The notes below the pieces were generated by a model. It saw only the letters and a program-made list of their open reading frames with translations, searched no databases and was not told the DNA's origin. Shown here in pieces: positions 31,081 through 50,599 of a stretch of DNA of 50,599 nucleotides (its first letter is position 1; every line of letters begins with the position of its first letter). Where the stretch lies: the IMG/VR virus record IMGVR_UViG_3300036979_000299, positions 1-50,599 of that record; one strand, 5' to 3'. This DNA is from a virus. Lineage: Duplodnaviria > Caudoviricetes. The position numbers and the translations under genes are program-made.

Positions 31081-31563
31081 TCATGGCTTATTTCCCTCCA
31101 GCTTCAGTTCGTCAAGAATTGTTCGAGCAATAGCAAGGGCCTGCTTTCTCACGTACACTTCTTGGCTCTCCTTCACGCTGTTCACGTCTGCCGCGATAGC
31201 CTTGGTCTCCCACCGCTGGTACGCCGCCAATCCAAGAATGAGCGCCAAGATAATCGCCGGTATCCCCGCCGCCCTCCAATTCCCAACCTTCAGCCAGTCT
31301 CCGCCCCCACCTCTCAACAGCTTATTCAGCGCGGACCATTGCCTTTCGGCATTGGTCTTCAGATTCTCGATTTCCACTCGATGCCCCTCACATCGGTTGA
31401 AACCATTTGTCTTCAGGTCATCCCAACGCGCATTAGAAACCTCAATAAACGCATCCACCCTCTGCATAAAGTCCCTGGCACCATGCAACCGCCCAATCGC
31501 CTCATCCTCAATATCGCGCTGTTGTTGAAGTTGTATCCTCTGCGTTTTGCTGAGTTCGCTCAT
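31081..31563 (-). CDS. Coiled-coil single-TM membrane protein (possible lysis protein)
   Basis: AAGIPAIILALILGLAAY transmembrane segment; GAGGTG RBS. Confidence 0.6.
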   Translation of the reverse strand: MSELSKTQRIQLQQQRDIEDEAIGRLHGARDFMQRVDAFIEVSNARWDDLKTNGFNRCEGHRVEIENLKTNAERQWSALNKLLRGGGGDWLKVGNWRAAGIPAIILALILGLAAYQRWETKAIAADVNSVKESQEVYVRKQALAIARTILDELKLEGNKP

Positions 31564-31571
31564 AGTTCACC

Positions 31572-32084
31572 TCACGGCCACTTCACCCAACACACCTCGG
31601 TCAGCTGCTGTGGACTCATGCCCCCGCCCATTCGGCAAAACCCAGACAGCGCGATGCCCACAGTCTCTCCCGAGACTGGCACGTACAGGCGGGTGTCGCC
31701 GTCCGGTACGCAACAATCCTTGCGCTCCTTGTCCGATCCCTTACCAGGGGGTCTCAGCTTGTCGCATGGTCCACCATGCCAGCAGCCCCCCCTGTTGAGG
31801 AAGGTCCACAGATTGCCCACGGTCGGTTTGTCGCCCTTGACAACTGGCCACAGCTCCGGGTGCTCCAAGGTGTACGTGAACCGGCTGCCTGCCATTTTGA
31901 TGGTCATCCGATCCACCACGGGCCAGGTGCGGATGGATTCGGGCGCGGTGTGGAACTTGGCGTCATCCCAACCAACTCGTGAATACGTGGATGGCTGCGG
32001 TTGAGGCTCCGGTGTCGGAATCGGTGTCGGCTTCGGTTGCTTCTTCGCGAACAAACTCTTGATCCAGTTCCATATCCAGTTCAT
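31572..32084 (-). CDS. Hypothetical protein with amphipathic N-terminus, Pro-rich linker and Cys-rich domain
   Basis: MNWIWNWIKSLF, PKPTPIPTPEPQPQP, six Cys. Confidence 0.7.
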   Translation of the reverse strand: MNWIWNWIKSLFAKKQPKPTPIPTPEPQPQPSTYSRVGWDDAKFHTAPESIRTWPVVDRMTIKMAGSRFTYTLEHPELWPVVKGDKPTVGNLWTFLNRGGCWHGGPCDKLRPPGKGSDKERKDCCVPDGDTRLYVPVSGETVGIALSGFCRMGGGMSPQQLTEVCWVKWP

Positions 32085-32120
32085 ATCATTCCTCCATCCT
32101 GTTGTGTTTGGTCAGCGGCT

Positions 32121-34127
32121 TCATGGTTGGTTTGTCCAGTTGGGATACAGGTAATCATATTGAGCCTGTGCATCGCGCATGTAGACGGGCATCTTGTTGG
32201 GCACGTGGTAGAGCTTCGGCCTGTCGCCTTCTCGCTGGTCGGGTGGCAACGCATTCCACGCCGCACGGGCCGCAACGCTGTTTGACAACTGCTGATACTG
32301 CCACAAGCGCCAGTCGTTTGTGGCTATTGGCGTAACCTCGATGATCTTGGTCGCCCACTTGCCAAGCACCGGGTAAGCGTTGCTGTGGATTTCGCATAAC
32401 TTTTCAACGGCCTTCGCCATTTTCTCAAGGTGAATCATTGTGCTGATGCCACGGAAATTATCTTCGGACGTGGCAATGTGCTCGTTATCTGCCGGGCTGT
32501 GGGAGGATATCTGTGTGCGCGTTCCTGACCCACCGTCCCACACGTACACCGATGAGTTGCTGGCAGCAATATAACCAGAGCCTGTATTTATTAGCGGGGG
32601 ATGGTCCATGTTATACATACGCAGTGATCGGTCGGCCTGTATTGACAACGCCGAAACAGCAGACGCCGTATTTGTTGGCGTGACGTTGATTACAAATCCC
32701 ATGCCCTGATCGGTATCGGTCCAGTTTTCAAAACAGTTTGCGAACATGGAAGAACGAGACCCCGAAGAAAACCCGGTCGCCCCGTAACCACGAAACGCTA
32801 ATCCGCCAACCTGGTCTCCGTTCTGCAATGCCGATGGAGCGGCGTATGTCCCTTTGGCTCGTCGTTGCAGTATGTAGCCCAACTGTGAATCCGAGTAGGT
32901 TTCATTTACGATGTTGAAATTAAGATATGACGCATGGGCATTTGGAGTTGATACTACGTGTAGAGCGTTCAGGGGTAAGTTGGTTCCAATGCCCAGCAAC
33001 ATGGCCGATGAATTCGTCTTTCCAGACAACGTCGCCGCCCCCGACACGTTGAGCGTGCCCATCGCCACGATGTTCGTCCCGTGGATGGTCCCGGCGTTGG
33101 TCGCCGACTGGCCCCCAAGATTGACAGCAGCCGTCGCGCCCGTGTAGGGAACAAACGTGGCTGATGCGTGACTGGCTTGCTCAAGGCCGTTTGTAACAGC
33201 AGAAGTCACGAGACCGTTCGTAACGGACGGATAAGCCAGCCCATTCGTGATGGCTGACGTGACAAGCCCATTGGTCACGCTCGGAGTCGCCAGGCCATTG
33301 GTGATGGCTGCCGTCACCAGGCCATTAGTGATGCTGGCCCCCACCCAGTTGCTTGGATTGTTCCGTGGGTAGTACGTGGAGTCCACCCAGTTGGTTCCTT
33401 CCGTGCGATTCCATAGGCCATTAGTAGATGGAACGCTCGACGCCTGTGCCAATCCCTGTGTCATCACATTGACCACATTCGTCACATCGGGAAAAGTTGT
33501 GAACCCATTCGTGGACGGAATGCTCGATGCTTGAGCAAGACCCTGAGTCATCACGTTCACGATATTCGTCACGTCCGGGAATGTCGTGAACCCATTCGTG
33601 GTGGGGATGGCAATTACGACCCACACACCATTACTCTGAGCCCACACATCTGTTGACCCAAACCCAACATTGGTGGCTGCATTCGCTGCAATACTGTCCC
33701 AAACATTGGTTCTTCCCACCATGTACTGTACCGCATTCGAGTACAATGCCACCCACGATGAAACCGAATCCCAAGTACCCGTCTGCCCGAACACATAGGA
33801 CACTCCCCCTGAATTGGAATTGACCCAAGCCCAAGCGGAATTCCAATACCCAGTCTGCCCGATCATGTACTGCACCGCGTTGCTGTTCGCTGTCACCCAC
33901 GCGGAGGCGTTCGTACTTGAAGGTGACAGGACAACCCACGTACCATTCGACCGGGCATACACACTGGTATTGTGCGGAGCATCACCCAGTACATTCGTCC
34001 AGTTGGACACGTAGCCGGGTGTGTACCCGTCCAGCGCACCCGTGGTTGTCCGGATACCCAGCGGCCTGAACGTCTGACCCCAAGCCAGCGCGGGAACGAC
34101 CAACAAAGCCAGCAGCATCTTTTTCAT
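32121..34127 (-). CDS. Tail-fibre-like protein with N-terminal signal peptide
   Basis: MKKMLLALLVVPALAWG|Q, foldon-like motif, internal repeats, LGIGTNLP..ALHV fibre motif; ATGA-coupled start. Confidence 0.75.
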   Translation of the reverse strand: MKKMLLALLVVPALAWGQTFRPLGIRTTTGALDGYTPGYVSNWTNVLGDAPHNTSVYARSNGTWVVLSPSSTNASAWVTANSNAVQYMIGQTGYWNSAWAWVNSNSGGVSYVFGQTGTWDSVSSWVALYSNAVQYMVGRTNVWDSIAANAATNVGFGSTDVWAQSNGVWVVIAIPTTNGFTTFPDVTNIVNVMTQGLAQASSIPSTNGFTTFPDVTNVVNVMTQGLAQASSVPSTNGLWNRTEGTNWVDSTYYPRNNPSNWVGASITNGLVTAAITNGLATPSVTNGLVTSAITNGLAYPSVTNGLVTSAVTNGLEQASHASATFVPYTGATAAVNLGGQSATNAGTIHGTNIVAMGTLNVSGAATLSGKTNSSAMLLGIGTNLPLNALHVVSTPNAHASYLNFNIVNETYSDSQLGYILQRRAKGTYAAPSALQNGDQVGGLAFRGYGATGFSSGSRSSMFANCFENWTDTDQGMGFVINVTPTNTASAVSALSIQADRSLRMYNMDHPPLINTGSGYIAASNSSVYVWDGGSGTRTQISSHSPADNEHIATSEDNFRGISTMIHLEKMAKAVEKLCEIHSNAYPVLGKWATKIIEVTPIATNDWRLWQYQQLSNSVAARAAWNALPPDQREGDRPKLYHVPNKMPVYMRDAQAQYDYLYPNWTNQP

Positions 34128-34516
34128 GTGAGTGTCAACTTTCCATCTCGTATATAATACCCATTCGCCCCGCCACCCTCCAACAACAGTGACACTTTGT
34201 CCGTGGTCAAATTCGCCCCGACAGGGGGGGTCGCAGCGGCTTGGGGAGGCGGGAGTCCGAGGATCATCCAGTGGTCCATTCCGTCCGTGCCGCGCCACAC
34301 GGCGATGTCCCCCAACTTGGCTCCTTCCGTGAGCGCCTTCCCCTCATCGGTGGCTGGGTCGGCGAAGTACACATCGGGTTGAGCCCGGAGCTGGTCAATC
34401 ATCATCACCCGGAAGTTCTCCAAGCGCACAACGAGTTCCGTGACGAGGGCTCTCATCTTGTCATCCATCTCCTCGCTCAAGACATCGTTGAAAGATATGA
34501 GATCCGAGATGTTCAC
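34124..34516 (-). CDS. Hypothetical tail-region protein
   Basis: 130 aa, coupled at both ends. Confidence 0.7.
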   Translation of the reverse strand: MNISDLISFNDVLSEEMDDKMRALVTELVVRLENFRVMMIDQLRAQPDVYFADPATDEGKALTEGAKLGDIAVWRGTDGMDHWMILGLPPPQAAATPPVGANLTTDKVSLLLEGGGANGYYIRDGKLTLT

Positions 34517-36642
34517 GCCTGCTTGCCTTTCGCCTGAACACGATTGAATACCACGGTCAAGGAATGAAACTCGGTCGGCCCATACGACCTGTCGATGATC
34601 GACATTCCCCAGCGGGGAACGGCTTCAAGCTTGTGATCCACCTTGTTCACCAAGGTCTGTGCCTGTGTCCGATCCAAGTACCGGGTCTCGCCCATCTTCA
34701 ACTGAGAGGTGTAGCCGTACTCGAACCCACGATAGATCCGGACGAACGGTGGATCGTCTTCATTGTGGTCCACACAGCAAGCCAACACTTCCCACACCTT
34801 CTTGGGCACATCGCTGTCGCCCCAATCGAATCGCTTCGGACCCCATCGCATTTCGATGAGACCCAGGTAGAACTTGTACCCGGCTCCTGGAACGGGGTTG
34901 AAAGCCAGCGGATCGGTCCCACCCACAACGGTCTGAATCGTGATGGTATCAGCCGTGTTGGATCGGATGTAAGCCACTTGGGCGTACTCCCCGTTCGCAT
35001 CCGACACGAGCACCCACCGTCCGGACAAGTCGCCCACCAGAGGCCCCCCTGATAAGTCGATGGTCAGGGTGGTACTGGTCCCGGCAGTAAGCACCCCGGA
35101 CAACACACTCTCCGTGGGTATCCACTCGCTGTAGAGTCCGGGCGTCCAGATCCTACCCCACACCCCACCGTAACCTTGACCGATTCCCTCAGTTCCACCC
35201 AGGGTCATGCTCTCCCCAGTTGCATCGTCAATGTACCCGGAGTAGGAGCACAGGAGATCCTTCTCGAAGTTGAAGAACCAACCCCCGGTCAGCGTGTTCT
35301 GGCCGATGGCGAAGTCAATGATACGATGCGAGCCCCGGAACGTGACGAATGCGCTGAAGAGACTCTGGGTCTGATCGTAGGCACAATGCCACAGCTTGAT
35401 CAGATTCTCGTCAGTCGATAAGTGTTCCCAGATTCGGGGCACGGATTGTCCGCTGATATCAACCAGTCTCGTGCCGTCCGATTCCAGGATACATTGCCGC
35501 CGAGCATCTATGCCTCTCACCAAACTGTCCACCGCCACCAAGCTATAGTGTGACGTGACCGAATTGGTTGTGGAGATCGCCCGACGCCGGGTCTTGAACG
35601 TGTCCGTCCCAATGAGCGTGAGATCCAGGGCGTAGCACGAGGGGCTGTCCGTGAACACGAGCAGGATCGGTTGGTTGGGAACTTGCGCGATCCCCGTGAT
35701 GTCACCCTCGAACTGAATCAAGTTGAGAGCCGGGTAGGACTCAGGCTCTCCCCGCTTGCTCCATCGAAGCACGTTGCCGGGGATGTAGCACATGAACTGC
35801 TGGCCCGCGCCCGATGCTGTCCCACTGTAGTTCATGGGCACACCGGAAGCACCCAACAGTCGGAGCGTGTGAGCGTCCACGTACTCACAGTAGTACGTCC
35901 CCGAGTTCCCAATACCTCCAGTCGAATCACCCAACAGCTTGAACGTCCACGAGTCGATGCCATCGTAGAAGATGTCAGCCCCCGCACTCACCAGGGGGGA
36001 GCCCGGTGTGACCGAGCATGTCACCCCTGACCCGATGGAGAAGTTGCCGCCGATGAAGATGTAGCTGCTGGCGGAAATGGCGTAGCGGTAGGCGGGCGGC
36101 TCGTAGTTGTCCTGCTCCACAGCCAGCCCGAGAAGATTGTCCGACGTGGTATCGCTCACCGTGACTGTCGCTGCCCCGGAGAAGTCCGCTTGGCCCGAGT
36201 AGTAGAATGGACCCACCACAGCCTCAGCCTGAGTGGATGCCCCCAGCGAGCGATAGATCAGCGCGGTCGTGATCCCATCTTGATTCGGATTGGTGACTAC
36301 AATCTGTCTCCCTGTTCCCACCTGCAATGTGGAAACGGATGTGGAAGGATTCCCCCGGATCATGTCCGATGATCCATCTGTCGCCGGGGTGGGACGGTTG
36401 TACAGAGTGGAAGCGTACACGGCCACCCACGCATACCACTTGCCCGTGGTGAGCCCTCCCGCGATCACTCCACCCAACGTGGGCACGGTGGCTTGCGGAA
36501 TCCCCAGCAGTTCCATCTGGAGATTCGAGTTGATTCGACGCGGTTTGTTGAGACCATTGAAGACCACATAGCGGTTCATCAGACGATCACCCGCCACACA
36601 GTCTTTCGTCACACCCTGCATTGTTCCGACAAAGATTTCCAT
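34513..36642 (-). CDS. Tail nozzle / head-closure-like beta-propeller protein, apparently lacking the usual N-terminus
   Basis: LRWSKRGEPESYP, GDITGI, C-terminal KRFDWGDSDVPKK; position downstream of the adaptor. Confidence 0.65.
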   Translation of the reverse strand: MEIFVGTMQGVTKDCVAGDRLMNRYVVFNGLNKPRRINSNLQMELLGIPQATVPTLGGVIAGGLTTGKWYAWVAVYASTLYNRPTPATDGSSDMIRGNPSTSVSTLQVGTGRQIVVTNPNQDGITTALIYRSLGASTQAEAVVGPFYYSGQADFSGAATVTVSDTTSDNLLGLAVEQDNYEPPAYRYAISASSYIFIGGNFSIGSGVTCSVTPGSPLVSAGADIFYDGIDSWTFKLLGDSTGGIGNSGTYYCEYVDAHTLRLLGASGVPMNYSGTASGAGQQFMCYIPGNVLRWSKRGEPESYPALNLIQFEGDITGIAQVPNQPILLVFTDSPSCYALDLTLIGTDTFKTRRRAISTTNSVTSHYSLVAVDSLVRGIDARRQCILESDGTRLVDISGQSVPRIWEHLSTDENLIKLWHCAYDQTQSLFSAFVTFRGSHRIIDFAIGQNTLTGGWFFNFEKDLLCSYSGYIDDATGESMTLGGTEGIGQGYGGVWGRIWTPGLYSEWIPTESVLSGVLTAGTSTTLTIDLSGGPLVGDLSGRWVLVSDANGEYAQVAYIRSNTADTITIQTVVGGTDPLAFNPVPGAGYKFYLGLIEMRWGPKRFDWGDSDVPKKVWEVLACCVDHNEDDPPFVRIYRGFEYGYTSQLKMGETRYLDRTQAQTLVNKVDHKLEAVPRWGMSIIDRSYGPTEFHSLTVVFNRVQAKGKQA

Positions 36643-36651
36643 TGTTCCTCC

Positions 36652-37653
36652 TTACCAAACACTGGGACCAAATGTGAACGTGATGGTTGTTCCGCCCTGT
36701 GAAACAGACACCGGCCCTCCGCTTGGATACCCGATGGAATTTACTGTCGCTGTCACAGGTACGACCGGACCATTGACTCCGATACTGTTGGACATGAATG
36801 CCGTATAATGCCCGTCGTAATACCGATAGAGGAAAACCTTTCCCGACAATGGAGCCCACGTGTAACTCCACTTATCATAGTTCGGTCCGCCACCGCCAGA
36901 GTTGTAACTCATGGTTTGATTGCCGATTCCATTATCGGCCACCATCTTCACAGTCCCGGTATACTTGGGTGAAACCAGTACGGATACCGGGAGCGTTTTT
37001 GGTGTGACACCTCCAACAATCGTTTCATCAACTTGAATCACTCCGCTGTACGAATCCGCCACTACCCCTGTTGGATCAAGTGTCACCACTGCATTGTCAG
37101 TGGCACCATACGCCAATATTCCCGTGGCTGGAGCGAGCGAGAACTTCGAGGTGATATCACCTCCGACAGGTCCAGTAACAGAAAACGCTTTTGCCCAAGT
37201 CAATGTGGACAGAGCATCCCCCACGTTCTTCACAATCATGTTCGCCGTCTGAGGCAGCGTCGCTCCCACAGTCGTTGAGAAACTGAGCGTCCCGGTCAGG
37301 CTGATGATCGGCCTTCTCTGCAAGATATCGACCGTCAGATTCACGACATCGGAATCCACGGCCACACCACCTGTGGCATCCCGGTAGTACGTCAACCCGA
37401 TCACAGCCGTGTAGGGGGAAGATGCTGCTACCATATTCGTTGTGTCCACAGTCACGATAACGAGAGCGCCATCCGAGTTGGCTATTGGGCCTATCCTGAC
37501 TCCAGATATCACCGGATAAGTGAACCCATGCAGGGCGTATGTAAGCGCGGCGCTGGACCCGGCTGGCCACGCGGAAGGTCCGGCTATGCTCACAGAAACA
37601 TAAGCATTAATCCCACCCACATTCGTCAGAGTCGTATATGCGGAAGCGATCAT
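36652..37653 (-). CDS. Ig-like (BACON-type) beta-rich virion protein
   Basis: LSF...VKNVG...TLTW...YSGVIQV...TLPVSV pattern. Confidence 0.6.
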   Translation of the reverse strand: MIASAYTTLTNVGGINAYVSVSIAGPSAWPAGSSAALTYALHGFTYPVISGVRIGPIANSDGALVIVTVDTTNMVAASSPYTAVIGLTYYRDATGGVAVDSDVVNLTVDILQRRPIISLTGTLSFSTTVGATLPQTANMIVKNVGDALSTLTWAKAFSVTGPVGGDITSKFSLAPATGILAYGATDNAVVTLDPTGVVADSYSGVIQVDETIVGGVTPKTLPVSVLVSPKYTGTVKMVADNGIGNQTMSYNSGGGGPNYDKWSYTWAPLSGKVFLYRYYDGHYTAFMSNSIGVNGPVVPVTATVNSIGYPSGGPVSVSQGGTTITFTFGPSVW

Positions 37654-38909
37654 TCACCCTCATACGCTGTAATGGTTAGTGCCAACGGAACGACTGTGAT
37701 GTCCAACTCACCCAACTTCAACGACACGTTCAGAGACGCTGTGATCGGCAACCCATTCGGATTCTTCACGACATTCCCGTACACGTCCACCACAGTGAAC
37801 AGAATAGTGCCGGACACCAAAACCACACCGCTTAACCCGGTGGAATCGAACGCCAAGTCCAGAGGCATGTGGATACCATTCCACATGCCTCCAAAGAAAG
37901 TGTCCCCACTGTCCAGCCTAATTCCCTGTGGCACGATATTCACGTCTCCAGTAATCACCTTCAACCACGAGGCGGAGAAAGATACCCGGATGTTGTAGAG
38001 AATGTTCCCACCCAACCCCAGATCGTTTGTCCAAACCTCGATCCGCTTCATCGTGATCTGCGACTGATCGGGAGGACTGTTGAACTCGGTGTTCGGAGAA
38101 GCGAACAACGCCATGACCACGGGTTCTCCCCCGGTCTGTCCTTGTGGACCTACGGGATCAGGTGGCGGATACGGAGGCGGTGGCCACCACTTGGGATCTT
38201 TCGGTGGGTCCAACGGCGGAGGCGGCGGAGGCGGTGGAGGCGGCGGTGGTGGAGGCGGAGGAGGAGGCGGAGGACCAGGATCAAGTATGAATATCCACTC
38301 TCCCCCTGCGTCAGCTTCCACAACCTCACTCGGAACAGAAATCAAATTGACGGTGTATGCGGGTATGGTGGCTCTGACTTGCCATGTGTACGTTCCGGTA
38401 GTCAACCCAGTCACCAACCTAGATGTGCTGCTCCCAGTACTGATCCAACTCCCGCTCTTACCGGGACCGCTCAAGCTGTATTCATAAGTCGCCGGGATCT
38501 GAGTAGTGCCATCCAATCCACCCCACCGACAAAACGATTGCCACCTCAGAGTCACGTCCATGTTTGCGACCTTATACGTCGTGCTGTCAGGGGGGAATAT
38601 CTTCCCGAAGATGGCCATCCCCGGAAACATCAGTCCACTGGGAATCGGGTTTGGGTTTGGAGAGATGGTGATTCTTCCACCCGCCTGTCGGAAGATCCCA
38701 GCGCGATCACGAAAGCGGAGCCCGGTCAGCGTCCACACCGGCCCACCCAGACTCCCCGTGCAGCACAGCAGCTTCCCCGGAATGCGCTTGAGGATGGTTG
38801 CCGGATTGTCAGTGCAGCCGTGGATCTCATCGACAAGAGATCCCATCTTGCCGACTTCCTTCACGCCGCCGAAGACGTGATACAATTCAAGTTCTTCTTC
38901 TGTTCTCAT
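37650..38909 (-). CDS. Tail-associated protein: nozzle-like N-module, FN3/Ig-like segments, poly-Pro linker
   Basis: N-terminus paralogous to 38906-39256; GLTTGTYTWQVRA FN3-like motif; 20 consecutive Pro. Confidence 0.7.
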   Translation of the reverse strand: MRTEEELELYHVFGGVKEVGKMGSLVDEIHGCTDNPATILKRIPGKLLCCTGSLGGPVWTLTGLRFRDRAGIFRQAGGRITISPNPNPIPSGLMFPGMAIFGKIFPPDSTTYKVANMDVTLRWQSFCRWGGLDGTTQIPATYEYSLSGPGKSGSWISTGSSTSRLVTGLTTGTYTWQVRATIPAYTVNLISVPSEVVEADAGGEWIFILDPGPPPPPPPPPPPPPPPPPPPPLDPPKDPKWWPPPPYPPPDPVGPQGQTGGEPVVMALFASPNTEFNSPPDQSQITMKRIEVWTNDLGLGGNILYNIRVSFSASWLKVITGDVNIVPQGIRLDSGDTFFGGMWNGIHMPLDLAFDSTGLSGVVLVSGTILFTVVDVYGNVVKNPNGLPITASLNVSLKLGELDITVVPLALTITAYEGE

Positions 38910-39256
38910 TCCAGTATGAACCGATCCGTGGGTGGCAAAGTCTGATCGTAAGTCAGCGGGGCTCGAAGCACATCCGTCTCGGTCTCGCTCACCCAAGTTC
39001 CACAGCGATTGAGAACCACATGGGAGATCCCCCTGAAAGAGAGCTGAGTCAGCGTGAGCACCGTGCCCCCTAGCGAGCCCGTGGAGGCCATGACCTTTCC
39101 GGGGATGCGTCTGATGTTTCCACGATCCGAAGGCTGTCCACCGTGTAACCAGGGTACCAGGGTAGAGTCCAAGTTGAGTTCGTCCACGGCTTGATTGACA
39201 CCGCGAAAGAACCCTACTTCGTATGGAGATTCCTCGACACGCCTTTGGTTACTCAT
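38906..39256 (-). CDS. Small tail protein resembling a nozzle N-terminal module
   Basis: FFRGVN...GNIRRIPGK; ATGA-coupled at both ends. Confidence 0.65.
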   Translation of the reverse strand: MSNQRRVEESPYEVGFFRGVNQAVDELNLDSTLVPWLHGGQPSDRGNIRRIPGKVMASTGSLGGTVLTLTQLSFRGISHVVLNRCGTWVSETETDVLRAPLTYDQTLPPTDRFILE

Positions 39257-40233
39257 CTGAAACGACCGACACCCGAGCGAGAGCCACGGGTGATGAATAT
39301 GCCTCTCACACCCGTCTGTCTGCCAGACACGGAACCAATCGTCAGGTCACTTACCAGGGTCTGACTCTTGTTCCGTCGCTTCTGAATACCTTCAGCTCTC
39401 GACATGGCCCTGCCCCAGAACTGCCGGGCAACATCCATGTTGTGATGCCACTCCAAAGCCACGGACCCCGCCATGTAGGCGATGGCCTCGCCCATGTTGG
39501 GCAGCTCAGGGACATCGGTGTCGTTGTAGAGTCGTTTCGGTTTCGCTGAGTAGCGAATAGAGAAAGCGGATGCGTCCGTGGCAGGGGGGATGCCATACAC
39601 GATGAACTGTTGAGTCTCGGACGGACGCACCCGCATGGTGAAGGAGCCCGATGGCCCTCGATACTCGGTCAGCAAATTGAACCCCACACCCGGAACGAAC
39701 GACCCGGCTTCGATCTGGTATCCGTAGTCACCAGGATCGACCATGTCGTTCAGGTCATGCGCGGAGTTGTTGGAATCGGAATAAGGATCGAACCTGACCC
39801 AATAGTCCTGAGATAGGACCGTATCAACGGATGACGTCTGAGCGGCTTTAAGGCCGTTTGTCAGAACCACGTTTTGAATTTGGGTCAGGTCCGCTCCCAC
39901 GATTCCAGACCAGTCATAGAATCGTACAGTGCCAAGATTCCCTGTTCGTCTCTCATACTTAAGCCGCATGGTCTCGTCCGGAACAGGGTCCAACCGGCGA
40001 GTCCCATACATGAGTCCAATCTCCGTGCCGTTGTAGTCATAGGGCAAGGGATAGAACTGCTGGTTAGCCACCGCACCGATAGTCACGGTCTTGGTGAGGG
40101 ATGGAAGGACATACGCTTCCGCGATCCGCTCCCACCCCTGGTTGATCCAGCGATCCCGGAGGGGAGTCATCTCGTCAAGGCGGGCGGTGCGGATCAGGTC
40201 ATCGAACTCTTGTCGGATTCGGTAAAGCTGCAT
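39253..40233 (-). CDS. Head-tail adaptor protein
   Basis: Helical N-terminus WINQGWERI, QFYPLPYD, C-terminal DVPELP...AIAYMA; position. Confidence 0.7.
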   Translation of the reverse strand: MQLYRIRQEFDDLIRTARLDEMTPLRDRWINQGWERIAEAYVLPSLTKTVTIGAVANQQFYPLPYDYNGTEIGLMYGTRRLDPVPDETMRLKYERRTGNLGTVRFYDWSGIVGADLTQIQNVVLTNGLKAAQTSSVDTVLSQDYWVRFDPYSDSNNSAHDLNDMVDPGDYGYQIEAGSFVPGVGFNLLTEYRGPSGSFTMRVRPSETQQFIVYGIPPATDASAFSIRYSAKPKRLYNDTDVPELPNMGEAIAYMAGSVALEWHHNMDVARQFWGRAMSRAEGIQKRRNKSQTLVSDLTIGSVSGRQTGVRGIFITRGSRSGVGRFR

Positions 40234-40240
40234 GTGCTCC

Positions 40241-40471
40241 TCAAGGAACCATCGGTCCCATGTTAGCCAGCAAGGCTTGAAGCTGCTGGTCTACGTTGTC
40301 CAACATCGGTTCGAGAATTTCGTCCCCGTAGTTTTTCCTCGCCTCGTGCAGATAGCAGCCCTTGCACAGCCTCTCCCCCCGATAGTAGACGCCGGGAGGA
40401 ACCATCACGATGTCACTGCATCGGTCGCATGTTCCCCGCTGCTTCTCGTAACCGAAGGGAGGGCGCGGCAT
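40241..40471 (-). CDS. Small zinc-finger protein
   Basis: CDRC...CKGC; AGGAG RBS. Confidence 0.7.
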   Translation of the reverse strand: MPRPPFGYEKQRGTCDRCSDIVMVPPGVYYRGERLCKGCYLHEARKNYGDEILEPMLDNVDQQLQALLANMGPMVP

Positions 40472-40480
40472 GTCGGACTC

Positions 40481-40708
40481 CTATCGCTTGAGACTGGCCA
40501 GCTTGGTCTTGCTCCCATACGTGGACTCGAACGTATGCTTCAGCTTGCGACCCGAGGCCGCGTGACCGCGAGACTTGGCCGGTGTGGCCCAGCCCTTCTG
40601 ACTTGAACCTGATCCTGATTTCACTGGAGCCTCCTGATGCCTGTTGTTGAGTGTGCCCGTTACGCCCTTCTCTCCCATCGCCGTCCGAAGAATCGGTGTG
40701 ATCGCCAT
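40481..40708 (-). CDS. Small basic protein
   Basis: GGAG RBS before MAITPIL; K/R/S/G-rich. Confidence 0.6.
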   Translation of the reverse strand: MAITPILRTAMGEKGVTGTLNNRHQEAPVKSGSGSSQKGWATPAKSRGHAASGRKLKHTFESTYGSKTKLASLKR

Positions 40709-40766
40709 GTGATTCTCCCCCATCAGGGGGAGGCCCGGTCATCTCTGACCGAGCCTCCTCGATTGA

Positions 40767-41264
40767 TTACGGATTGTTGCCACGACTCAGTTCGATCCAC
40801 TTCGAGCTGGTTACGGCGTACAGACTCAGCACATCGTTGGTGTTACCCAACCACGTAGCCGACAGCACGACGTTGGCGGCAGCGACAATGGACACCAGGT
40901 TTGTGCTACTGGAATCCACGATCAAGTCAACCGTCTGACCAGCCGCAATCGGCGTAGGCAGCGTGACCGTATTCGTCCCGGCAGCGGCGGACCCGATGCC
41001 GGTCAGAACGATCTTGGACCCATTGCACACCACAGCCTGAGCGTTCGTCACGTCTTGCGCTCTGGGGGTGGCAAAAATGTTGTACAGAAGGGTGGTGTCC
41101 CGCAACGTGGGAGTCACGAAAGCCGCATCAATCAGATTGCCGTAGGTGGCATCCAGATACGCCTGCATCCGAACCCAATCCCGAAGGATAGGTTCGGGGG
41201 TCTGACTCATCGCAACAGCGGACATCGACAGAACAGCCAACACCAACACAATGAACTTCTTCAT
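40767..41264 (-). CDS. Signal-peptide-bearing protein next to major capsid (decoration / head-fibre-like)
   Basis: MKKFIVLVLAVLSMSAVAMS|Q; C-terminal TVTLPT...GQTV.LI...WIE motif seen in fibre/decoration domains. Confidence 0.75.
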   Translation of the reverse strand: MKKFIVLVLAVLSMSAVAMSQTPEPILRDWVRMQAYLDATYGNLIDAAFVTPTLRDTTLLYNIFATPRAQDVTNAQAVVCNGSKIVLTGIGSAAAGTNTVTLPTPIAAGQTVDLIVDSSSTNLVSIVAAANVVLSATWLGNTNDVLSLYAVTSSKWIELSRGNNP

Positions 41265-41322: not shown

Positions 41323-42507
41323 TTACACGCCCGCCGGGATCAGATCCCACTGTGTTTCGGGAATGCCGTTGAAGGTCGGAGGAGTTGTCCCATCGAGGGA
41401 GTACGCGCCCGCGACCCAGTTGCGCCAGTTGCGAACCAGGAAACCCCAGCTCTCTTCGTAGGAGCAGAAGTACGCCCGGTTGTCTTCGTCCCGGTAGTAA
41501 GCCCACGGATCTTCCGTCTTGCTCACATCCAGAACATTGATGCCGCCCGACTTCGCCTTGCCCAGGAACCACGTATGCGGAACCAGGAACGGGCTGTCCA
41601 CGAGCTGCACGTTGAACCCTTCGACGTTCACGAAGATGTTCTCCCGGTTGGAGACCAACTGGAAGGCGCGTTGCTGCTCGATGAACCGGGACTTCAGAAT
41701 TTCGTTCCAACGGGGAACGTCATAGCTGGAGACAAGGAGGGTGTCGGGCTTCTGGAAGAAGCGGACATCGTTCTCGTCGAATGCCATGTTCATGCAGTAG
41801 TGCGTCCACACGCGCTTCAGCGCCCAGTAGCTAGGAGCCAGACTGAATGCGTTGAAGTAACCGCCCGTGTCCGGAACCGCCGCCGCCATGTCCGTGCAGG
41901 TGCCGACAGCCATGCTGCCGGGACCAGCCACAGCGCCCGCAGAATAGGACGGGTGGGGGGCTCCAGGAGCCGCGAACAGCGCCACGCCGTCATACTGCAA
42001 CCCGGTCGCCGGAAGATCCGCCAACCCACCGGAACGAAGCCGATGGTTGAAGAACGGATTACCAGCCGCGATGCCGCCCAGGTTGAAGATGTCAGCCGAC
42101 AGCTTCTGCCACTTGGTCTTTTTGCGCGAGAGGAACGCCCGACCGATGGTGTCGGCCAAGTACCCGGCGAACCGGGCCTCATCCACGCCATCCGCCGTGC
42201 GGAACTCACGGGACCGCTGCTCCATCTCTTTCGAGATGTTGACCTTGCCGGACGCTTCGATGGCCTGACTGCCATAGCAAACGTAGCCGGTGGTCATGTT
42301 CTTTTGCACGATGGGTGCGGCTTCCTGCCGACCCGACAGTTCGCCCATGGGCACCAGGGAGTATTCCTTCGTCCACAGACCGTCGATGGGCTTGCGGGAG
42401 AGAATGTCCTCGATGACATTGTCGAACTCCCGGTTATCGTTTAGGGCCAGGTTGACTGCGTACAGTTCCTCACGGAACAGTTCAGGGAATTGAACACTGA
42501 GTAACAT
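41323..42507 (-). CDS. Major capsid protein (HK97 fold, Mu gpT-like)
   Basis: 394 aa, YDGVALF...HP, KPDTLLV, VDSPFL...WFL, G..VRNWR; strongest codon bias, position after scaffold. Confidence 0.85.
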   Translation of the reverse strand: MLLSVQFPELFREELYAVNLALNDNREFDNVIEDILSRKPIDGLWTKEYSLVPMGELSGRQEAAPIVQKNMTTGYVCYGSQAIEASGKVNISKEMEQRSREFRTADGVDEARFAGYLADTIGRAFLSRKKTKWQKLSADIFNLGGIAAGNPFFNHRLRSGGLADLPATGLQYDGVALFAAPGAPHPSYSAGAVAGPGSMAVGTCTDMAAAVPDTGGYFNAFSLAPSYWALKRVWTHYCMNMAFDENDVRFFQKPDTLLVSSYDVPRWNEILKSRFIEQQRAFQLVSNRENIFVNVEGFNVQLVDSPFLVPHTWFLGKAKSGGINVLDVSKTEDPWAYYRDEDNRAYFCSYEESWGFLVRNWRNWVAGAYSLDGTTPPTFNGIPETQWDLIPAGV

Positions 42508-44396: not shown

Positions 44397-46624
44397 CCTT
44401 CACCTCCCATGACTTGCTGAAGCGTCTCCGCTTCCTGTTGTGCCTCGGGGTTGGGTTGAGCCTGTTCTCCCCCCTGACCCTGCTCGGACATGACTTCCGG
44501 AGCCTGTCCACTCCGGAGGGATGTCATCATGTTCTGCGTCATCCCCTGCATCTGCTCCGGATTCATGGCCACCATCTCAGCTTCGGACGGGATCAGGTAT
44601 CGGAAGCCCCGGATATCCATGACCTGAGCGGCCAGCCGCATCCACCGGAAGAAGTACTTCTTGTAGAGTTCCGGATTGAACTGAGCAATACCCTGAAGCA
44701 TGGGCGTGAAGAACTGGAGCTGCCTCATAAACGTCTCTTCCCGAACCTGAGCGTTGATGTACTGAGACGCCGCCTGTGACTTCCACTTGAGCGGCTTCGC
44801 CAGTTCTTCCAATGTGATCCGATTGACCTGTTCCAACTCGGGCTGTGTTCCGGGAAAGATGATCTTGTTCAGAATCTCCATCTCTTCATTGTAGACCGCC
44901 ATCTCGTAGAACCCCTGCCACACCCAGTTGGCCAGCCGTTCCCATGAACGATTCCAATCGTCGATCATTCCCTCGATACCAATGTTGGCCTGCTGTAGCA
45001 ACAGTCCGGTCTTGGCAGCCGGGGACCGGGGATCGGTTGAGTCCGTGTTCCCCTGCATGAGCGACGTGATACTGGTTCGATTGGCCGCTCTCTGTTGAGT
45101 CAGGGGGAGCAGCACGTTCAAGAGCATGGGGCTGGGTGGAGGAACCTCCAGGGCCTTCACGTCGTTGATCGTCTTCACGTACCCGACCTTGAATGGACCG
45201 ATGCCATCCTTGAACGGAACGTACCCACCGTCATCCGGATGAACGGACAGCAGCGGACGGAAGCAAGCCATCGCCGCTGAGTCCAGGGTCAAGTCCACCG
45301 CGTTGGACTCCAGGAAGTCCTCGTTGATTAGCCGGGCTCCGAATCCGAATCCCCAATAACTCTTCGGCTTCACACCCATCTTGAAGTGGAAGTAGCAGGG
45401 AGTCTCCGTGAAATGCGGATAGGTCTTGGCCCGGAGGATCTTCCTGCTCTCGGGCTCGATGTCGATCATCACGTACTTGGGAATCAGTCCCCTGGGATCG
45501 CTCTTCGTCTTGTACCCGTACTTGCACAGCACCCGGTACACCGCGAACGTGTTCTTGTACGGAGCGTTCTTCACATCTCCACCCAAGCTGTCCGATTCGG
45601 ACTGCCAATCGTAGCAGAGATCCCAGACGTTCTGTAGCGACACCTCGTCCTTGGCGGCATCCTCTCCGGTGCTCACACCACTCTGGGAAAGGCTTCGGTT
45701 CAACCGGCGCATGGTCCGCTTGTTCAGAACTTCTTCGATGTCCTTGCGCTCATACCAGCCCACGCCCCTGGATGACAGGAGCATGAGATCGTTTTCCGTC
45801 AGGTACATCCGACGGGCGCGGAACTTGATGTCCCGATCTTCGAGAACATTCGGTGGAATCAAGTGGTCAATCTTGTCCACCTTGAAGAACTGCATTCCGT
45901 TCTTCGTGACCACGTCCGCTTCCACCAACATCCGGGCGGGTCGCCCATCCGCGATGGTCTGCTGCGCGGCGATGTAGTCCGCGTCATCCAAACACTTGTC
46001 CTGATCCTCCGCCAACTTTTCGGCGGTCAGGTACGTCCGGATCACCCGCTGGGGAACCTTTTCGTACATCGTGTCCGCTTCCAGAATGAGCGATCCATCC
46101 AGGATGAACTCGAACAGACCGTCCGTCCCGATCACATCCCGGAGATCCAGATCGTTCTCCAGAATCGTCTGCATGAACCATTCCGCCCGGTGGATGAACT
46201 CGATCTCAGACACGTTGGAGATCTTCTCGTTCACACAGAACCACGGCTGGGGCGCGAACAGACCCAAGCGCAATCGGTCAATCCCCTCAACCACCCGCTC
46301 GAACAAGAGACCGGAAGTGAAGTTAGCTCCCAATCCCATGCTGGGGTAAAACTTCTCCACGTACTCCAAAGCGTACACCGCCCGGTACAACGCCCACTGG
46401 TTACGAATCGAATCCACGTTCTGAACACACGCCTTGAGATCCCGGATCAACCAGGTGGCGATATCTTCCTTCGCCGAATCGGTCAGATCCAACGAGGGAA
46501 AGAAGTCCTCGAACATCTTATCCCTGCCAGGGGGGGCTGACTGGGGCTGTTCGGTCTCCGGAGCGAACGACTCGGGTGTTGGGGTGGGTGTTTCTTCCAT
46601 GGCATCCTGGGGCATCGTAGGCAT
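44393..46624 (-). CDS. Portal protein
   Basis: 743 aa directly after TerL; YWGFGFG...L, ITSLMQG, Q/M-rich C-terminus like podoviral portals. Confidence 0.85.
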   Translation of the reverse strand: MPTMPQDAMEETPTPTPESFAPETEQPQSAPPGRDKMFEDFFPSLDLTDSAKEDIATWLIRDLKACVQNVDSIRNQWALYRAVYALEYVEKFYPSMGLGANFTSGLLFERVVEGIDRLRLGLFAPQPWFCVNEKISNVSEIEFIHRAEWFMQTILENDLDLRDVIGTDGLFEFILDGSLILEADTMYEKVPQRVIRTYLTAEKLAEDQDKCLDDADYIAAQQTIADGRPARMLVEADVVTKNGMQFFKVDKIDHLIPPNVLEDRDIKFRARRMYLTENDLMLLSSRGVGWYERKDIEEVLNKRTMRRLNRSLSQSGVSTGEDAAKDEVSLQNVWDLCYDWQSESDSLGGDVKNAPYKNTFAVYRVLCKYGYKTKSDPRGLIPKYVMIDIEPESRKILRAKTYPHFTETPCYFHFKMGVKPKSYWGFGFGARLINEDFLESNAVDLTLDSAAMACFRPLLSVHPDDGGYVPFKDGIGPFKVGYVKTINDVKALEVPPPSPMLLNVLLPLTQQRAANRTSITSLMQGNTDSTDPRSPAAKTGLLLQQANIGIEGMIDDWNRSWERLANWVWQGFYEMAVYNEEMEILNKIIFPGTQPELEQVNRITLEELAKPLKWKSQAASQYINAQVREETFMRQLQFFTPMLQGIAQFNPELYKKYFFRWMRLAAQVMDIRGFRYLIPSEAEMVAMNPEQMQGMTQNMMTSLRSGQAPEVMSEQGQGGEQAQPNPEAQQEAETLQQVMGGEG

Positions 46625-48594
46625 TACCTGTACCTCCTAAGGGCTTCGTCTTTCGACAGCGGGTTGTACCGGGTGGGGGAAGCCGAGGGCTTTGCGCCCC
46701 GGTACTCTTCCATCACCTGCATCTCGTGAGCCACCCGCTTCTTGTTCAGCGGTTCATGGAACACGGGGGTCTCAGCAACTATCTTGGTGGCAATGCTGGC
46801 TGCCATCACGCGGTCATCGGTGTGTCCGGGTAGAGCAATCAATCGGCCCCGGCTGTCGATGAAGTGCATCATCTCGTTCAGCAAGTCAATGCTGTGAACC
46901 AGGCACTTCCCATTCTTGAAATCCTGTCTAAGCTGGCCGCACACATCCTTCTTGTTCCCCACAGTGGTCTGCCAACCGTACTCCCGCTTGATCTGCTGGT
47001 TGGCGATCTTGCTTCGGGTGTAGATGTGAGTGTACCCAGCCTTCTCGATGTTGGCGCGGAGAAGTCCTCCGCACTTGTTGTTCATCTCGGGAGCCAGCAG
47101 CGCCTTGTTGTAGTAGATAGCAATCATCACGGCGTAGGAAGCCGCCATCTCTTCGTCGAACAAGCCGCCCCACTCCGCCACTTGCTCCAGCCGATAGGGA
47201 TCGAACACCTCGACGATGGAGTTGTCGCTCGTGTACTCGGTGGACTTGATTCCTTCAGCCACATCCACGACCACCAGGTACTTCCTACCCGGCTGTGGAC
47301 TCCGGTAGATCTCCAGCGCACCCTCGCTCATCTTGGCCGTGTCATCCTGCGAGAAAGTGATGCTATCCCGGGTGGCACTCAAAAATCCCCGGATCGGCAT
47401 TACGTTGTCCTGTTCCAGAGCGACCCAGGCTTCGCGAGCACCACGCGGGTGATTGACAATGGACTGAATGTGCTTGGGATACATCTTCTTAACGGCGTCC
47501 AGCGCCAGCTTCTTGAAGTCCCGGTAGAACTTGATCGTCTCCATCCTGTCCTGAACGGCCTCGACGTTGAAGTAGTTCGTGCCTGTGGTCAGGAACGGTT
47601 CGGAACTGTTCAAGGGGAAATCCTGCCGGAACGCGGACTCAGATCCCAACATGTCGATCTGCTTCCGACGAAACTTTATGTGGCCCGATCTGAGTTCGTA
47701 AGTCTCCAGCAGCTTCTTCTCGTCCAGTGTGTACTCCAACTCCTCCCCTGTTCCCAAAGACTCTTCGCAGTCAGGGGAGTCCTTCCACGAGATGAAGATG
47801 AACTCCCACTTCCCATCGCCCTTCTCCGCTTCCCGGCAATCGTCCGCGAACTTGTTGAGACCGAACGCGGTGGATTCTTTGCACACAAACGCGAACCCGG
47901 TTCGTGGGACTGAGTTGAGCAGGGAAGTCTCCGCCGTGCGCTGCGCTCCCTCACGCCACTTCGAGTTCTCGGACATGTGCACGACATTGATCGTGCCTGA
48001 TGTTCCTGGGTTGGGATTCTCCCCGGAGTCCTGTTCAACCACGGAACCATTCGACAACTTGATTCCGGACTTCGCCTTGGGCATGGGAACGCGCTTGGGA
48101 GGCCAATGCGATTCGATGGGCGATCCAGCGCCACACAGATCCCGTTCCTGAAAGAGTTCGATCATCGACGTGATGTTGCTGGTGTGAGAACTCAGATCGG
48201 CAATGACGAACACGCCGATGTTGGCAACGAACCGGGCGAACCAATAATCGAATCCGGCGATCAGAGTGGAGATTCCGACCTTGCGATGCTTCAGGACAAG
48301 AACTTGAACTCGGGTCCACGGGTCCGGGACCAGATGAGCGCAAATCTTGTCGGCAATCTTGAGCTGGTTCGGATTCAGTTTGAACTGGACGATACCTACT
48401 CCGTCCGATCCACCGGACAACTCACCAGCCCGAATGTACCCGTAATTCTCCATCCAGTAGACCGGATGGATTTTCGAGATCTCAAACTCGGTCTGCTGCA
48501 CAGTCCATGATTTCGCTGCCTTGGACGCAAGGAGTCGTGACACCTTGCGATCCAGGGCCGCGAGATTGGGGTACTGCTTGACAGAGTAACTCAT
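46624..48594 (-). CDS. terL: Terminase large subunit
   Basis: LNPNQ, LKHRKVGIST Walker A, VHMSE, ESTA, VVDVAEG, APEMN, HTDDRVMA. Confidence 0.95.
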   Translation of the reverse strand: MSYSVKQYPNLAALDRKVSRLLASKAAKSWTVQQTEFEISKIHPVYWMENYGYIRAGELSGGSDGVGIVQFKLNPNQLKIADKICAHLVPDPWTRVQVLVLKHRKVGISTLIAGFDYWFARFVANIGVFVIADLSSHTSNITSMIELFQERDLCGAGSPIESHWPPKRVPMPKAKSGIKLSNGSVVEQDSGENPNPGTSGTINVVHMSENSKWREGAQRTAETSLLNSVPRTGFAFVCKESTAFGLNKFADDCREAEKGDGKWEFIFISWKDSPDCEESLGTGEELEYTLDEKKLLETYELRSGHIKFRRKQIDMLGSESAFRQDFPLNSSEPFLTTGTNYFNVEAVQDRMETIKFYRDFKKLALDAVKKMYPKHIQSIVNHPRGAREAWVALEQDNVMPIRGFLSATRDSITFSQDDTAKMSEGALEIYRSPQPGRKYLVVVDVAEGIKSTEYTSDNSIVEVFDPYRLEQVAEWGGLFDEEMAASYAVMIAIYYNKALLAPEMNNKCGGLLRANIEKAGYTHIYTRSKIANQQIKREYGWQTTVGNKKDVCGQLRQDFKNGKCLVHSIDLLNEMMHFIDSRGRLIALPGHTDDRVMAASIATKIVAETPVFHEPLNKKRVAHEMQVMEEYRGAKPSASPTRYNPLSKDEALRRYR

Positions 48595-48720
48595 CGACTC
48601 TTCTTCGGTTTGCTCGATCCAGCCAGAGGCTTGGTGTACGAGAAACAATTTGCCGCCATCGTCTTGATCGACTTGGCTTTCCCGGATTTGCTGTCAGTTT
48701 TTTTCTTCATGGTTGATCCC

Positions 48721-49276: not shown

Positions 49277-49851
49277 GTCCATGGCTCCGTATTGTGTGGC
49301 CTGTAGTGGTACAGGCATTTCTCTCCCAAGAACACTTCCCGCTTCAACAGTCTGGAGTCGGCCATTGCCCGAGTCCAGAAATGATCCTCGCTGATTGTGA
49401 TGTCCCGATATTTGATCCTCCTTGCCAAATCCGTCCGGACCGGATTCAAGTGGTTTGGCTGTCGGTAATATGTCGGCACCCCACACTTGTCCGCCCGCTC
49501 CGTCCACACCGGGCACATGAGCGAATGAATGAACCTCCGCTCCATTACCCCACCCCACACAGCCTTCCCCCAAAACCCAATGCAGTCCACGTACTGCGTT
49601 TGCAGAATCCGCAAGATATCCTGAACGTATGTGTCCGAGACCCAATCGTCATCGTCCACGAAGACGGAGTACGTCCCGGTCGCCCGCATGAGCAAGGTAT
49701 TCCGCTTGAACCCGGTCGTGTGCTCCTTGTTGTCCTCATCCAACAGAACCTCAACCGGACTGTCGCTAATCTGTCGCTTCAGCTCACTCAGCAGGGGGGC
49801 TCGAAGCCTCGCTCGATCTGCCAAGGTCGGGATGAGAATGCTGAGAATCAT
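49273..49851 (-). CDS. Glycosyltransferase family 2
   Basis: MILSILIPT, GFKRN.L...ATG.Y..FVDDDD, SEDHFW. Confidence 0.9.
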   Translation of the reverse strand: MILSILIPTLADRARLRAPLLSELKRQISDSPVEVLLDEDNKEHTTGFKRNTLLMRATGTYSVFVDDDDWVSDTYVQDILRILQTQYVDCIGFWGKAVWGGVMERRFIHSLMCPVWTERADKCGVPTYYRQPNHLNPVRTDLARRIKYRDITISEDHFWTRAMADSRLLKREVFLGEKCLYHYRPHNTEPWT

Positions 49852-50504: not shown

Positions 50505-50508
50505 TTGA

Positions 50509-50599
50509 CCCCCCAATTCACCAGCTTTCTCTTCTCGAACAACTGTCTCCCCCACGACATTTTGTCTTGGCTGTTCTCTGCGGCGTATGTCGCGTCCCA
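50509..50599. repeat. 91-bp terminal direct repeat, right copy
   Basis: Identical to 1-91. Confidence 0.97.

Follow-up and report, generated by a model that had tools for sequence, protein, structure and literature searches.

Two late genes of an uncultured phage begin with Sec-type leaders

The virus record IMGVR_UViG_3300036979_000299 (Duplodnaviria; Caudoviricetes) is a stretch of 50,599 bp, which we analysed over its full length and refer to as the window. The window is the whole record and carries a 91-bp terminal direct repeat, indicating a closed genome of ~50.5 kb; the genome is complete and podovirus-like, and the phage is short-tailed and uncultured. Our subject is two genes on its minus strand, one encoding a 668-amino-acid (aa) fibre-type protein and one, directly after the major-capsid-like gene, encoding a protein of 165 aa (the small protein). 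Each begins with what resembles a signal peptide for the general secretory (Sec) pathway. The features of the two genes are:

32121..34127, minus strand: fibre-type preprotein, 668 aa, with a leader, a conserved N-terminal domain, a TNG[L/F] shaft and a variable C-terminal part
34077..34127, minus strand: fibre leader, codons 1-17, MKKMLLALLVVPALAWG; predicted cut before Gln18
33618..34076, minus strand: mature N-terminal domain of the fibre, residues 18-170, common to homologues with differing C-termini
33183..33599, minus strand: TNG[L/F] repeat region of the fibre, nine motifs, residues 177-315, the source of much of its Thr-Asn (TN) enrichment
40767..41264, minus strand: small preprotein, 165 aa, with a leader, a short helix at residues 25-41, a linker and a C-terminal knob at residues ~65-165
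41205..41264, minus strand: small-protein leader, codons 1-20, MKKFIVLVLAVLSMSAVAMS; predicted cut before Gln21

An earlier reading of the letters (the original prediction) had placed a Sec-type leader at the start of each gene and none on the capsid, portal, adaptor or nozzle-like genes, and this held. The gene running from 34127 to 32121 opens with MKKMLLALLVVPALAWG followed by QTF, and that running from 41264 to 40767 opens with MKKFIVLVLAVLSMSAVAMS followed by QTP. We assessed leaders by eye, by conservation and by a heuristic, distinct from SignalP, that looks for an uncharged hydrophobic run and small residues at positions -3 and -1. The heuristic flagged two of the 42 curated genes of the window, exactly the fibre and the small protein; the capsid, portal, adaptor and nozzle-like genes were all passed over. 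Both leaders consist of MKK and 13-16 hydrophobic residues, ending in A-W-G and A-M-S, each with Q at +1. The features of a type I signal peptide, a basic n-region, a hydrophobic core and small residues at -3 and -1, are present in 7/7 small-protein and 3/3 fibre sequences. Neither leader is of the lipoprotein or the twin-arginine (Tat) type, as +1 is Gln with no lipobox Cys and the n-region carries KK with no twin arginine.

Homologues, in which the original prediction had asked for the leaders to be conserved, keep the same arrangement. Gln21 is invariant in all seven small-protein sequences (alignment A1) and Gln18 in all three fibre sequences (alignment A3), each behind the features just listed; a more distant fibre relative, P0029, also retains the leader and the +1 Gln. 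Between the small protein and P0044, 5/19 leader positions are identical compared with 39/60 and 66/85 in the mature part, and between the fibre and P0005 the figures are 9/16 and 50/59. The leader thus drifts faster than the mature part while its physicochemical pattern is unchanged, as expected of signal peptides. With the leaders conserved in homologues, export is the natural reading and very likely; passage through Sec with a predicted cut before Gln is what these N-termini plainly suggest.

The small protein is predicted to be a trimeric knob

Five database homologues of the small protein and the syntenic gene of contig L002 share the leader, the invariant Gln and then PDPILRDWVRMKAYL. 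AlphaFold2 (AF2), supplied with a 98-row alignment, modelled a leader helix, a second helix at residues 25-41, a linker and a beta-sandwich with a mean predicted local distance difference test score (pLDDT) of 86.3, rising above 90 in blocks of residues from ~70 onward; a 7-row alignment gave a pLDDT of 49.5 and an unusable model. Foldseek searches of the PDB matched the knob to a phage tailspike (4.3e-6), the Pa223 capsid spike (4.2e-4), CBA120 TSP4 N-terminal domains and T4 gp9, and searches of BFVD returned tail fibres, minor tail proteins and collagen/C1q-knob proteins. The matches of the beta-sandwich had E values of 4e-6 to 6e-4 and template-modelling (TM) scores by query of only 0.35-0.46.

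Folding three copies of residues 22-165 gave a score of 0.92, compared with 0.00 for the best of three controls, with at least 80% of contacts in agreement between runs and partner pLDDT of at least 81. In calibration, the mark was reached by 20/30 proteins solved as one-chain pairs and 1/23 single-chain proteins, and the trimer job differed from that calibration in using the protein's own alignment and three copies. From the confident model, the fold matches and the trimer score together we read the small protein as a trimeric mini-fibre ending in a knob, predicted to resemble phage receptor-binding proteins and a capsid spike. It has no match to Phage_cement_2 (PF09956). Neither it nor the fibre has a Pfam match at E≤0.01, hence no Por_Secre_tail domain of the type IX secretion system (T9SS) was seen in either. 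The small protein has no lipobox and its mature part is modelled as mostly beta-sandwich, which sets it apart from spanins and lipoprotein blockers such as Rz1, Llp and Cor.

The knob defines a large family encoded beside phage capsid genes

We searched exhaustively with a profile of the 7-row alignment; 128 representative proteins scored E≤1e-3, 13 of them E≤1e-10 and two E≤1e-30. Nearly all match only in the C-terminal 100 residues, which lie at the member's own C-terminus and carry the motif ...TNGQA...LTGIGGANDTTNTVTLA.P...STNLI.IADSGN..LS.AW.GD.ND...W.E.SRS.N. The small protein belongs to a large undescribed family of 128 clusters, encoded beside phage capsid genes. PHROGs had no match for 42 of the 44 members tested, and tblastn with members P0066 and P0051 against 50,697 phage records found none. 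The members' neighbours in a protein atlas are 97-100% viral, which we take as a lead only.

Leaders are the rule in the family. The heuristic flagged 102/128 members as opposed to 5/124 neighbouring open reading frames (ORFs), and those five resemble true leaders. A second, simpler measure found a hydrophobic N-terminus in 98/128; K or R preceded it in 91, and the uncharged run had a median length of 20 residues. The residue at +1 of flagged members varies (D 17, Q 14, A 13, G 11, E 11 and others), as expected if their hosts differ. About a fifth of the family, ~20 members, are leaderless and have charged coiled-coil N-termini. In one leaderless sub-group (P0070, P0081, P0092, P0129, P0153, P0165, P0170, P0171 and L033:4467-5300) the coiled coil is rich in Lys and Glu and often ends in G.D(I/L)(D/N)GDGK; the L033 gene lies two ORFs after the major head gene.

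Scanning viral contigs located 17 family loci. We ran PHROGs on 100 of their 124 neighbouring ORFs, dropping five of L037 (a near-duplicate of L036) and 19 that were peripheral or on the opposite strand. At 15/17 loci the family gene is part of the portal-protease-scaffold-capsid block, either directly before or after the protease or major head gene or 1-3 ORFs away; L036 and L037 had no head gene recognised by PHROGs near the family gene. The major head genes of these loci fall into seven PHROGs (371, 1005, 4523, 1357, 10/617, 212 and 267). In L039 (4194-5381), L045 and P0146, a leader is followed by Phage_cement_2 and then the knob, with cement matches of 71.4 and 63 bits against a cut-off of 24. 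Nowhere is the puzzle sharper than here, where a secretion signal precedes a capsid cement domain.

In the window and in three related contigs, L002, G001 and L007, a leader-bearing protein whose C-terminus varies occupies the slot between the capsid and adaptor genes. The slot proteins of G001 and L007 are 316 and 441 aa long, and the one from G001, which we compared, has no detectable similarity to that of the window. Further small leader-bearing ORFs occur in head modules of the family (L033:5577-6047, L034:5290-5757, L040:2714-3367, L044:5323-5799 and L047:5382-5744), and at least the one in L034 carries the DYTPTSKE motif with which mature family members begin; head modules with several leader-bearing genes seem to be common.

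The 668-aa protein is a modular fibre

In alignment A3 the first 60 mature residues of the fibre are 59/60 and 50/59 identical and the rest ~50%. The leader and QT[F/Y]RPLGIRT are retained in the closest homologue, P0004 (620 aa), and in P0005 (431 aa), whose C-terminal halves differ; P0005 is also encoded in contig L029, at the same position and with the same ATGA overlap with the preceding gene. Six of the nine TNG[L/F] motifs are spaced at a 9-residue period. The C-terminus of P0004 has a near-threshold Peptidase_S74 match (21.6 bits, cut-off 22), and P0025 has a clear S74 domain and a pre-chaperone segment in common; Pfam found no Peptidase_S74 match in the window fibre, which shows weak similarity to fibre families. 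The 668-aa protein is thus a modular protein of tail-fibre type, with a conserved proximal part, a repeat shaft and an exchangeable distal part.

The fibre has 36 database relatives, most of them found through the TNG[L/F] repeat, which is present in 34/36. Leaders were flagged in 25/36, and several of the other 11 seem to be N-terminally truncated or over-extended. Searches for the fibre by tblastn in 50,697 phage records had no match, and no relative appeared in viral contigs, genome contigs or a first metagenome scan; a second metagenome scan with P0004 as the query found L029. An alignment of nine repeat sequences was too divergent to serve as a query. Fibre residues 409-470 (32718-32903) resemble PDB 8ol4, a 'cell wall surface anchor family protein' (E 2.8e-6).

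Genomic setting of the two genes

Late genes take up the minus strand between 48648 and 24824, and genes for replication lie on the plus strand, encoding a family A polymerase, a primase, a helicase, a uracil-DNA glycosylase and an MT-A70 protein; no integrase or tRNA was seen in the window. Among 19 late proteins searched with Pfam and PHROGs, only the terminase and the SU10 adaptor had a match. The other features that we refer to are:

46624..48648, minus strand: terminase large subunit, with PHROG terminase matches; start of the late module
41323..42507, minus strand: major-capsid-like gene, named from its position and from syntenic homologues 61-72% identical, with a 58-bp gap to the small leader-bearing gene downstream
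39253..40233, minus strand: head-to-tail adaptor, SU10 type (Pfam PF24175, 42.1 bits, cut-off 27)
34513..36642, minus strand: nozzle-like tail gene, 709 aa, named by position only, from synteny
34124..34516, minus strand: 130-aa gene, 3' of the nozzle-like gene, kept in relatives; its stop overlaps the fibre ATG (ATGA)
31081..32084, minus strand: 170-aa and 160-aa genes, 3' of the fibre, without family matches; the 160-aa protein has one membrane helix

The PF24175 domain in the tail module identifies the tail as that of an SU10-type podovirus. The names 'portal', 'capsid' and 'nozzle' come from size and conserved gene order; the capsid gene is named by synteny because it had no Pfam or PHROG match, and a tblastn search of 50,697 phage records with it found nothing. 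The 709-aa nozzle-like protein had no family or PDB match. Relatives of the capsid gene at 61-72% identity are present in four contigs, L001, L002, G001 (= L003-L006) and L007, and L029 has tail genes in common with the window. Relative to G001 and L007, the fibre, 170-aa and 160-aa genes (31081-34127) form a three-gene insertion; in those contigs a gene for a Q-rich internal protein lies directly 3' of the homologue of the 130-aa gene.

Two proteins encoded within 37650-39256, of 116 and 448 aa, have a common N-terminal domain (45% identity over 53 residues) and probably serve as tail appendages without a leader. A stretch of ~24 prolines in the 448-aa protein is missing from its L029 homologue (309 aa). 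Just before the adaptor gene, 40241-40471 encodes a 76-aa protein with two CxxC pairs that is kept in L029, L002, G001 and L007. A scan of the window for sigma-70 promoters and terminators found sites rarer than chance.

TN enrichment reflects a repeat and glycosylation is unsupported

The counts given in the original prediction were borne out, with 23 TN dipeptides and 12 N-x-S/T sequons in the fibre and four TN in the small protein. The fibre TN count is well above expectation (23 compared with 6.3 ± 2.2; reached in 0/1000 composition-preserving shuffles), and that of the small protein less so (4 compared with 1.2; reached in 27/1000). The enrichment in the fibre arises from the TNG[L/F] repeat, which contains 9/23 TN. 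Sequons are not enriched (12 compared with 11.8 expected in the fibre, 1 compared with 2.1 in the small protein), and the Bacteroidota O-glycosylation motif D-[ST]-[AILVMT] occurs 3 times compared with 1.9 expected in the fibre and once compared with 0.8 in the small protein.

The window also encodes three putative glycosyltransferases (GTs):

1158-2279 and 49848-50555: the GT9-like and the GT34-like gene
across the junction (1-931 with 50501-50508): third GT-like gene, a 312-aa ORF that spans the terminal repeat

The GT9 protein is 54% identical to a counterpart in G001 and 51% to one in L007, the junction GT is found in G001, and the GT34-like gene in L002. With GT9 conserved in G001 and L007, the GT cluster is a core feature of the phage group. 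The original prediction held that the exported proteins are possibly glycosylated by host or phage enzymes, for which N-x-S/T sequons or T/N-rich repeats would be the sites, and the conserved phage-encoded GT genes and a fibre shaft rich in Thr, Ser and Asn would suit that idea. Co-occurrence of GT clusters with the leaders was to be its check. However, relatives without the TNG[L/F] fibre keep their GT genes all the same and no link between these genes and the fibre was seen, the TN count comes from a repeat motif, and sequons at the composition-expected rate leave glycosylation unsupported, as do O-motif counts near chance. The acceptor of the GT9 enzyme is not guessable from structure, as the protein has no solved relative at E≤0.01. 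We consider glycosylation of these proteins very unlikely.

Cultured phages and known systems offer partial parallels

GenBank record KC821620.1 labels gp085-087 of Cellulophaga phage phi18:3 'structural protein, experimental MS/MS proteomics', and each of the three opens with a leader and then Gln, as do gp079-083 of phi46:3 (KC821622.1). These are late proteins of 312-843 aa, encoded near lysis-type genes in cultured tailed phages, and in their leaders and +1 Gln they resemble the window proteins. The Cellulophaga phages differ from the podovirus-like window in being of siphovirus type, with genomes of 71-73 kb, and infecting a marine flavobacterium. No comment on the leaders of the Cellulophaga phages was found in the searchable literature. 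In phi18:3 (L053, KC821620.1, 7113-9235), a gene for a 91-aa membrane protein lies 3' of the three leader-bearing genes, and a GH108 + PG_binding_3 endolysin is encoded five genes downstream.

Known structures offer likenesses to each of the two proteins. Gp52 of Pseudomonas phage Pa223 (PDB 9ny6) is described as a homotrimeric capsid spike in which a short N-terminal segment provides attachment and the C-terminus forms a knob, and its authors propose it as an adsorption aid (bioRxiv 10.1101/2025.06.11.659172). The small protein is likewise a predicted trimer and matches gp52 at a Foldseek E of 4.2e-4 with a modest TM by query of 0.43; gp52 differs in being modelled from residue 2, without a leader, and in having a long triple beta-helix, for which the 165-aa protein has no counterpart. 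Capsid cement proteins of the Phage_cement_2 type are also encoded beside the capsid gene, but the domain itself occurs in P0146 and L039 and not in the window protein. To our knowledge, known cement proteins have no signal peptide. Tail fibres with Peptidase_S74 have a modular design like that of the 668-aa protein, with S74 present in P0025, near threshold in P0004 and absent from the window; classical tail fibres have no Sec leader, whereas the 668-aa protein does.

Phage proteins with export signals are known among or next to virion genes, for example the receptor blockers Llp of T5 and Cor and the late-operon morons Lom and Bor of lambda. Being lipoproteins or outer-membrane barrels, these resemble neither a fibre nor a trimeric knob, and they are not known to be tied to head genes across lineages. 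In the literature, covered mostly at the abstract level, we found no description of Sec leaders on tailed-phage fibre or decoration proteins. The nearest published statement concerns Porphyromonas gingivalis prophages, which carry proteins, function unknown, with leaders that follow the Q-rule (Gln at +1) and for which the authors propose a role in envelope modification (PMC10367356).

Host clues point in different directions

The original prediction saw in the TN-rich style a weak hint of a host from the Planctomycetes-Verrucomicrobia-Chlamydiae (PVC) group. The +1 Gln points instead to Bacteroidota-like 'Q-rule' hosts. As given in PMC5837995, the mean Q-value is 71% in Bacteroidetes, below 9% in most Chlorobi and 77% in Ignavibacterium album; like the Bacteroidetes substrates of the Q-rule described there, every sequence of both window lineages has Gln at +1. 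Shine-Dalgarno motifs of the AGGAG/GGAGG type precede 24/42 window genes. Such frequent motifs are unusual for Bacteroidota, so they argue against a typical Bacteroidota host and conflict with the +1 Gln.

The related contig L007 is binned in a metagenome-assembled genome (MAG), G003, of 2.6 Mb and 61% GC, from a phylum of 70 genomes. MAG G003 has 59 matches to the T9SS C-terminal domain, compared with none in 14 control genomes. By eye, ~2/20 of the leaders on its T9SS cargo are followed by Gln, and the leader of the L007 phage protein also lacks the +1 Gln; that phage leaders track host rules is, on this pair, a single anecdote. Neither the fibre nor the family profile matched anything in the 70 genomes of this phylum.

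Discussion

Both proteins are of a kind expected on the outside of a virion, one being a modular fibre and the other, whose gene adjoins that of the capsid, a predicted trimeric knob. The original prediction of exported outer virion components is thus upheld as regards the leaders and the outer-virion character of the proteins, and fails as regards glycosylation. We propose that both are trimeric appendages of receptor-binding type, made as Sec preproteins and attached to the particle, with attachment itself only favoured, at slightly under an even chance. On this proposal, the fibre and the small protein would be co-expressed with the head and tail genes. Both preproteins would be threaded across the inner membrane and cut, presumably by host signal peptidase I, exposing an N-terminal Gln, and would then probably fold and trimerise in the periplasm. 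They would meet finished, DNA-filled particles only once holin lesions or lysis had merged the two compartments. The conserved segments at their mature N-termini would then anchor them, the small knob protein sitting on the capsid as a mini capsid fibre and the 668-aa protein serving as an accessory fibre.

We favour attachment because the link between the family and head genes holds across lineages, because one of its branches carries a cement domain, and because both proteins are conserved proximally and variable distally, as in virion-anchored fibres. Two further reasons are that leaderless members occupy the same niche and that the cultured Cellulophaga phages provide a precedent. Several points weigh against it. 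Cleavage and export are predicted from sequence, and the two proteins are at most candidate virion parts, encoded in a genome whose 'capsid' and 'nozzle' take their names from synteny. The fold matches of the small protein are modest. Neither window protein is detectably similar in sequence to the Cellulophaga proteins, and co-purification could account for the mass-spectrometric detection of phi18:3 gp085-087 in a preparation of virions. The fibre is missing from G001 and L007, and the leaderless appendage candidates (the 116-aa, 448-aa and 333-aa genes) mean that the virion need not depend on a leader-bearing fibre. The non-homologous slot proteins of G001 and L007 would also fit a cassette of accessory exported proteins.

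That last point leads to the main alternative, already raised in the original prediction as receptor blocking on the infected cell, in which the proteins are exported but never become virion parts, acting instead in or on the envelope of the infected cell. Possible roles there include binding or masking of receptors (also on lysis debris, as with T5 Llp), superinfection exclusion and exit through surface layers. Leaders that look genuine and are conserved are as much at home in this account, and so is a capsid-adaptor slot filled by non-homologous leader-bearing proteins in relatives, like a swappable accessory cassette. Small membrane-protein or lipoprotein genes adjoin the leader-bearing gene in every genome examined (the 170-aa and 160-aa genes in the window, the latter with its membrane helix, 155-aa and 95-aa genes in G001 and a lipoprotein gene in L007), and the phi18:3 endolysin gene lies nearby; the adjoining genes have no significant Pfam match even at E≤1, so 'lysis cassette' stays a guess. 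The leaderless appendage candidates of the tail module and the envelope modification proposed for the P. gingivalis prophage proteins also fit. However, an envelope role leaves unexplained the tie to head genes in 15/17 loci, the seven capsid lineages and the cement-domain branch, as well as the leaderless fifth of the family, at least one of whose genes sits in the same niche (L033). The window proteins have no lipobox, T9SS C-terminal domain or outer-membrane-type domain for delivery to the surface, and no binding domain common to the leader-bearing and other window proteins was found, as a decoy of the virion's own fibre would be expected to have. The known blockers Llp and Cor are small lipoproteins and not fibre-like trimers. 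We regard an envelope role as possible, though we would sooner doubt than accept it.

The N-termini could also be something other than export signals. In that case assembly would be wholly cytoplasmic, and the hydrophobic helix might help the proteins to assemble or trimerise, tether them transiently to the membrane or be cut away by a phage protease. This would agree with the textbook view that tailed-phage particles are built in the cytoplasm and with the AF2 model of the small-protein leader as a helix. For P. gingivalis phages, leader-like N-termini of capsid proteins are suggested to be removed by prohead proteases (PMC10367356); no prohead protease was recognised among the 19 late proteins of the window searched with Pfam and PHROGs. 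Across the 128 clusters, K or R precedes the hydrophobic run in 91/98, the median run is 20 uncharged residues and Ala, Gly or Ser stands at -1, while the sequence itself is unconserved. A structural contact element would keep its sequence, so the drift of the leader counts against this explanation, as does a lineage-invariant +1 Gln that matches the signal-peptidase/glutaminyl-cyclase rule of hosts (PMC5837995). We therefore think it improbable that these N-termini serve anything but export.

Extending export followed by virion attachment from the window to the family, a broad set of so far uncultured tailed phages, represented by at least 128 protein clusters and seven capsid lineages, may send capsid mini-fibres, cement-knob fusions and accessory fibres through Sec, mature them in the periplasm and clip them onto finished particles once holin lesions or lysis open the way, a two-compartment assembly that we put forward tentatively, as something less than an even bet. 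Phage fibres and capsid spikes are known kinds of protein; new here are the 128-cluster family and, as a testable possibility, assembly in two compartments.

In the textbook account the assembly of tailed phages is wholly cytoplasmic. Routine export of receptor-binding and decoration parts and their addition at lysis would, if true, change the prediction of virion proteomes and host-range determinants, since genes with a leader tend to be set aside as 'non-structural'. It would also account for a class of dark-matter genes that recurs beside capsid genes, and would open periplasmic chemistry, for example pyroglutamate capping and disulfide formation, to phage parts. If the proteins are instead bound to the envelope, they would constitute a large new class of late-expressed envelope effectors made from fibre parts. 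Under either reading the 128-cluster family merits a name, and the Cellulophaga phages provide a cultured system for tests.

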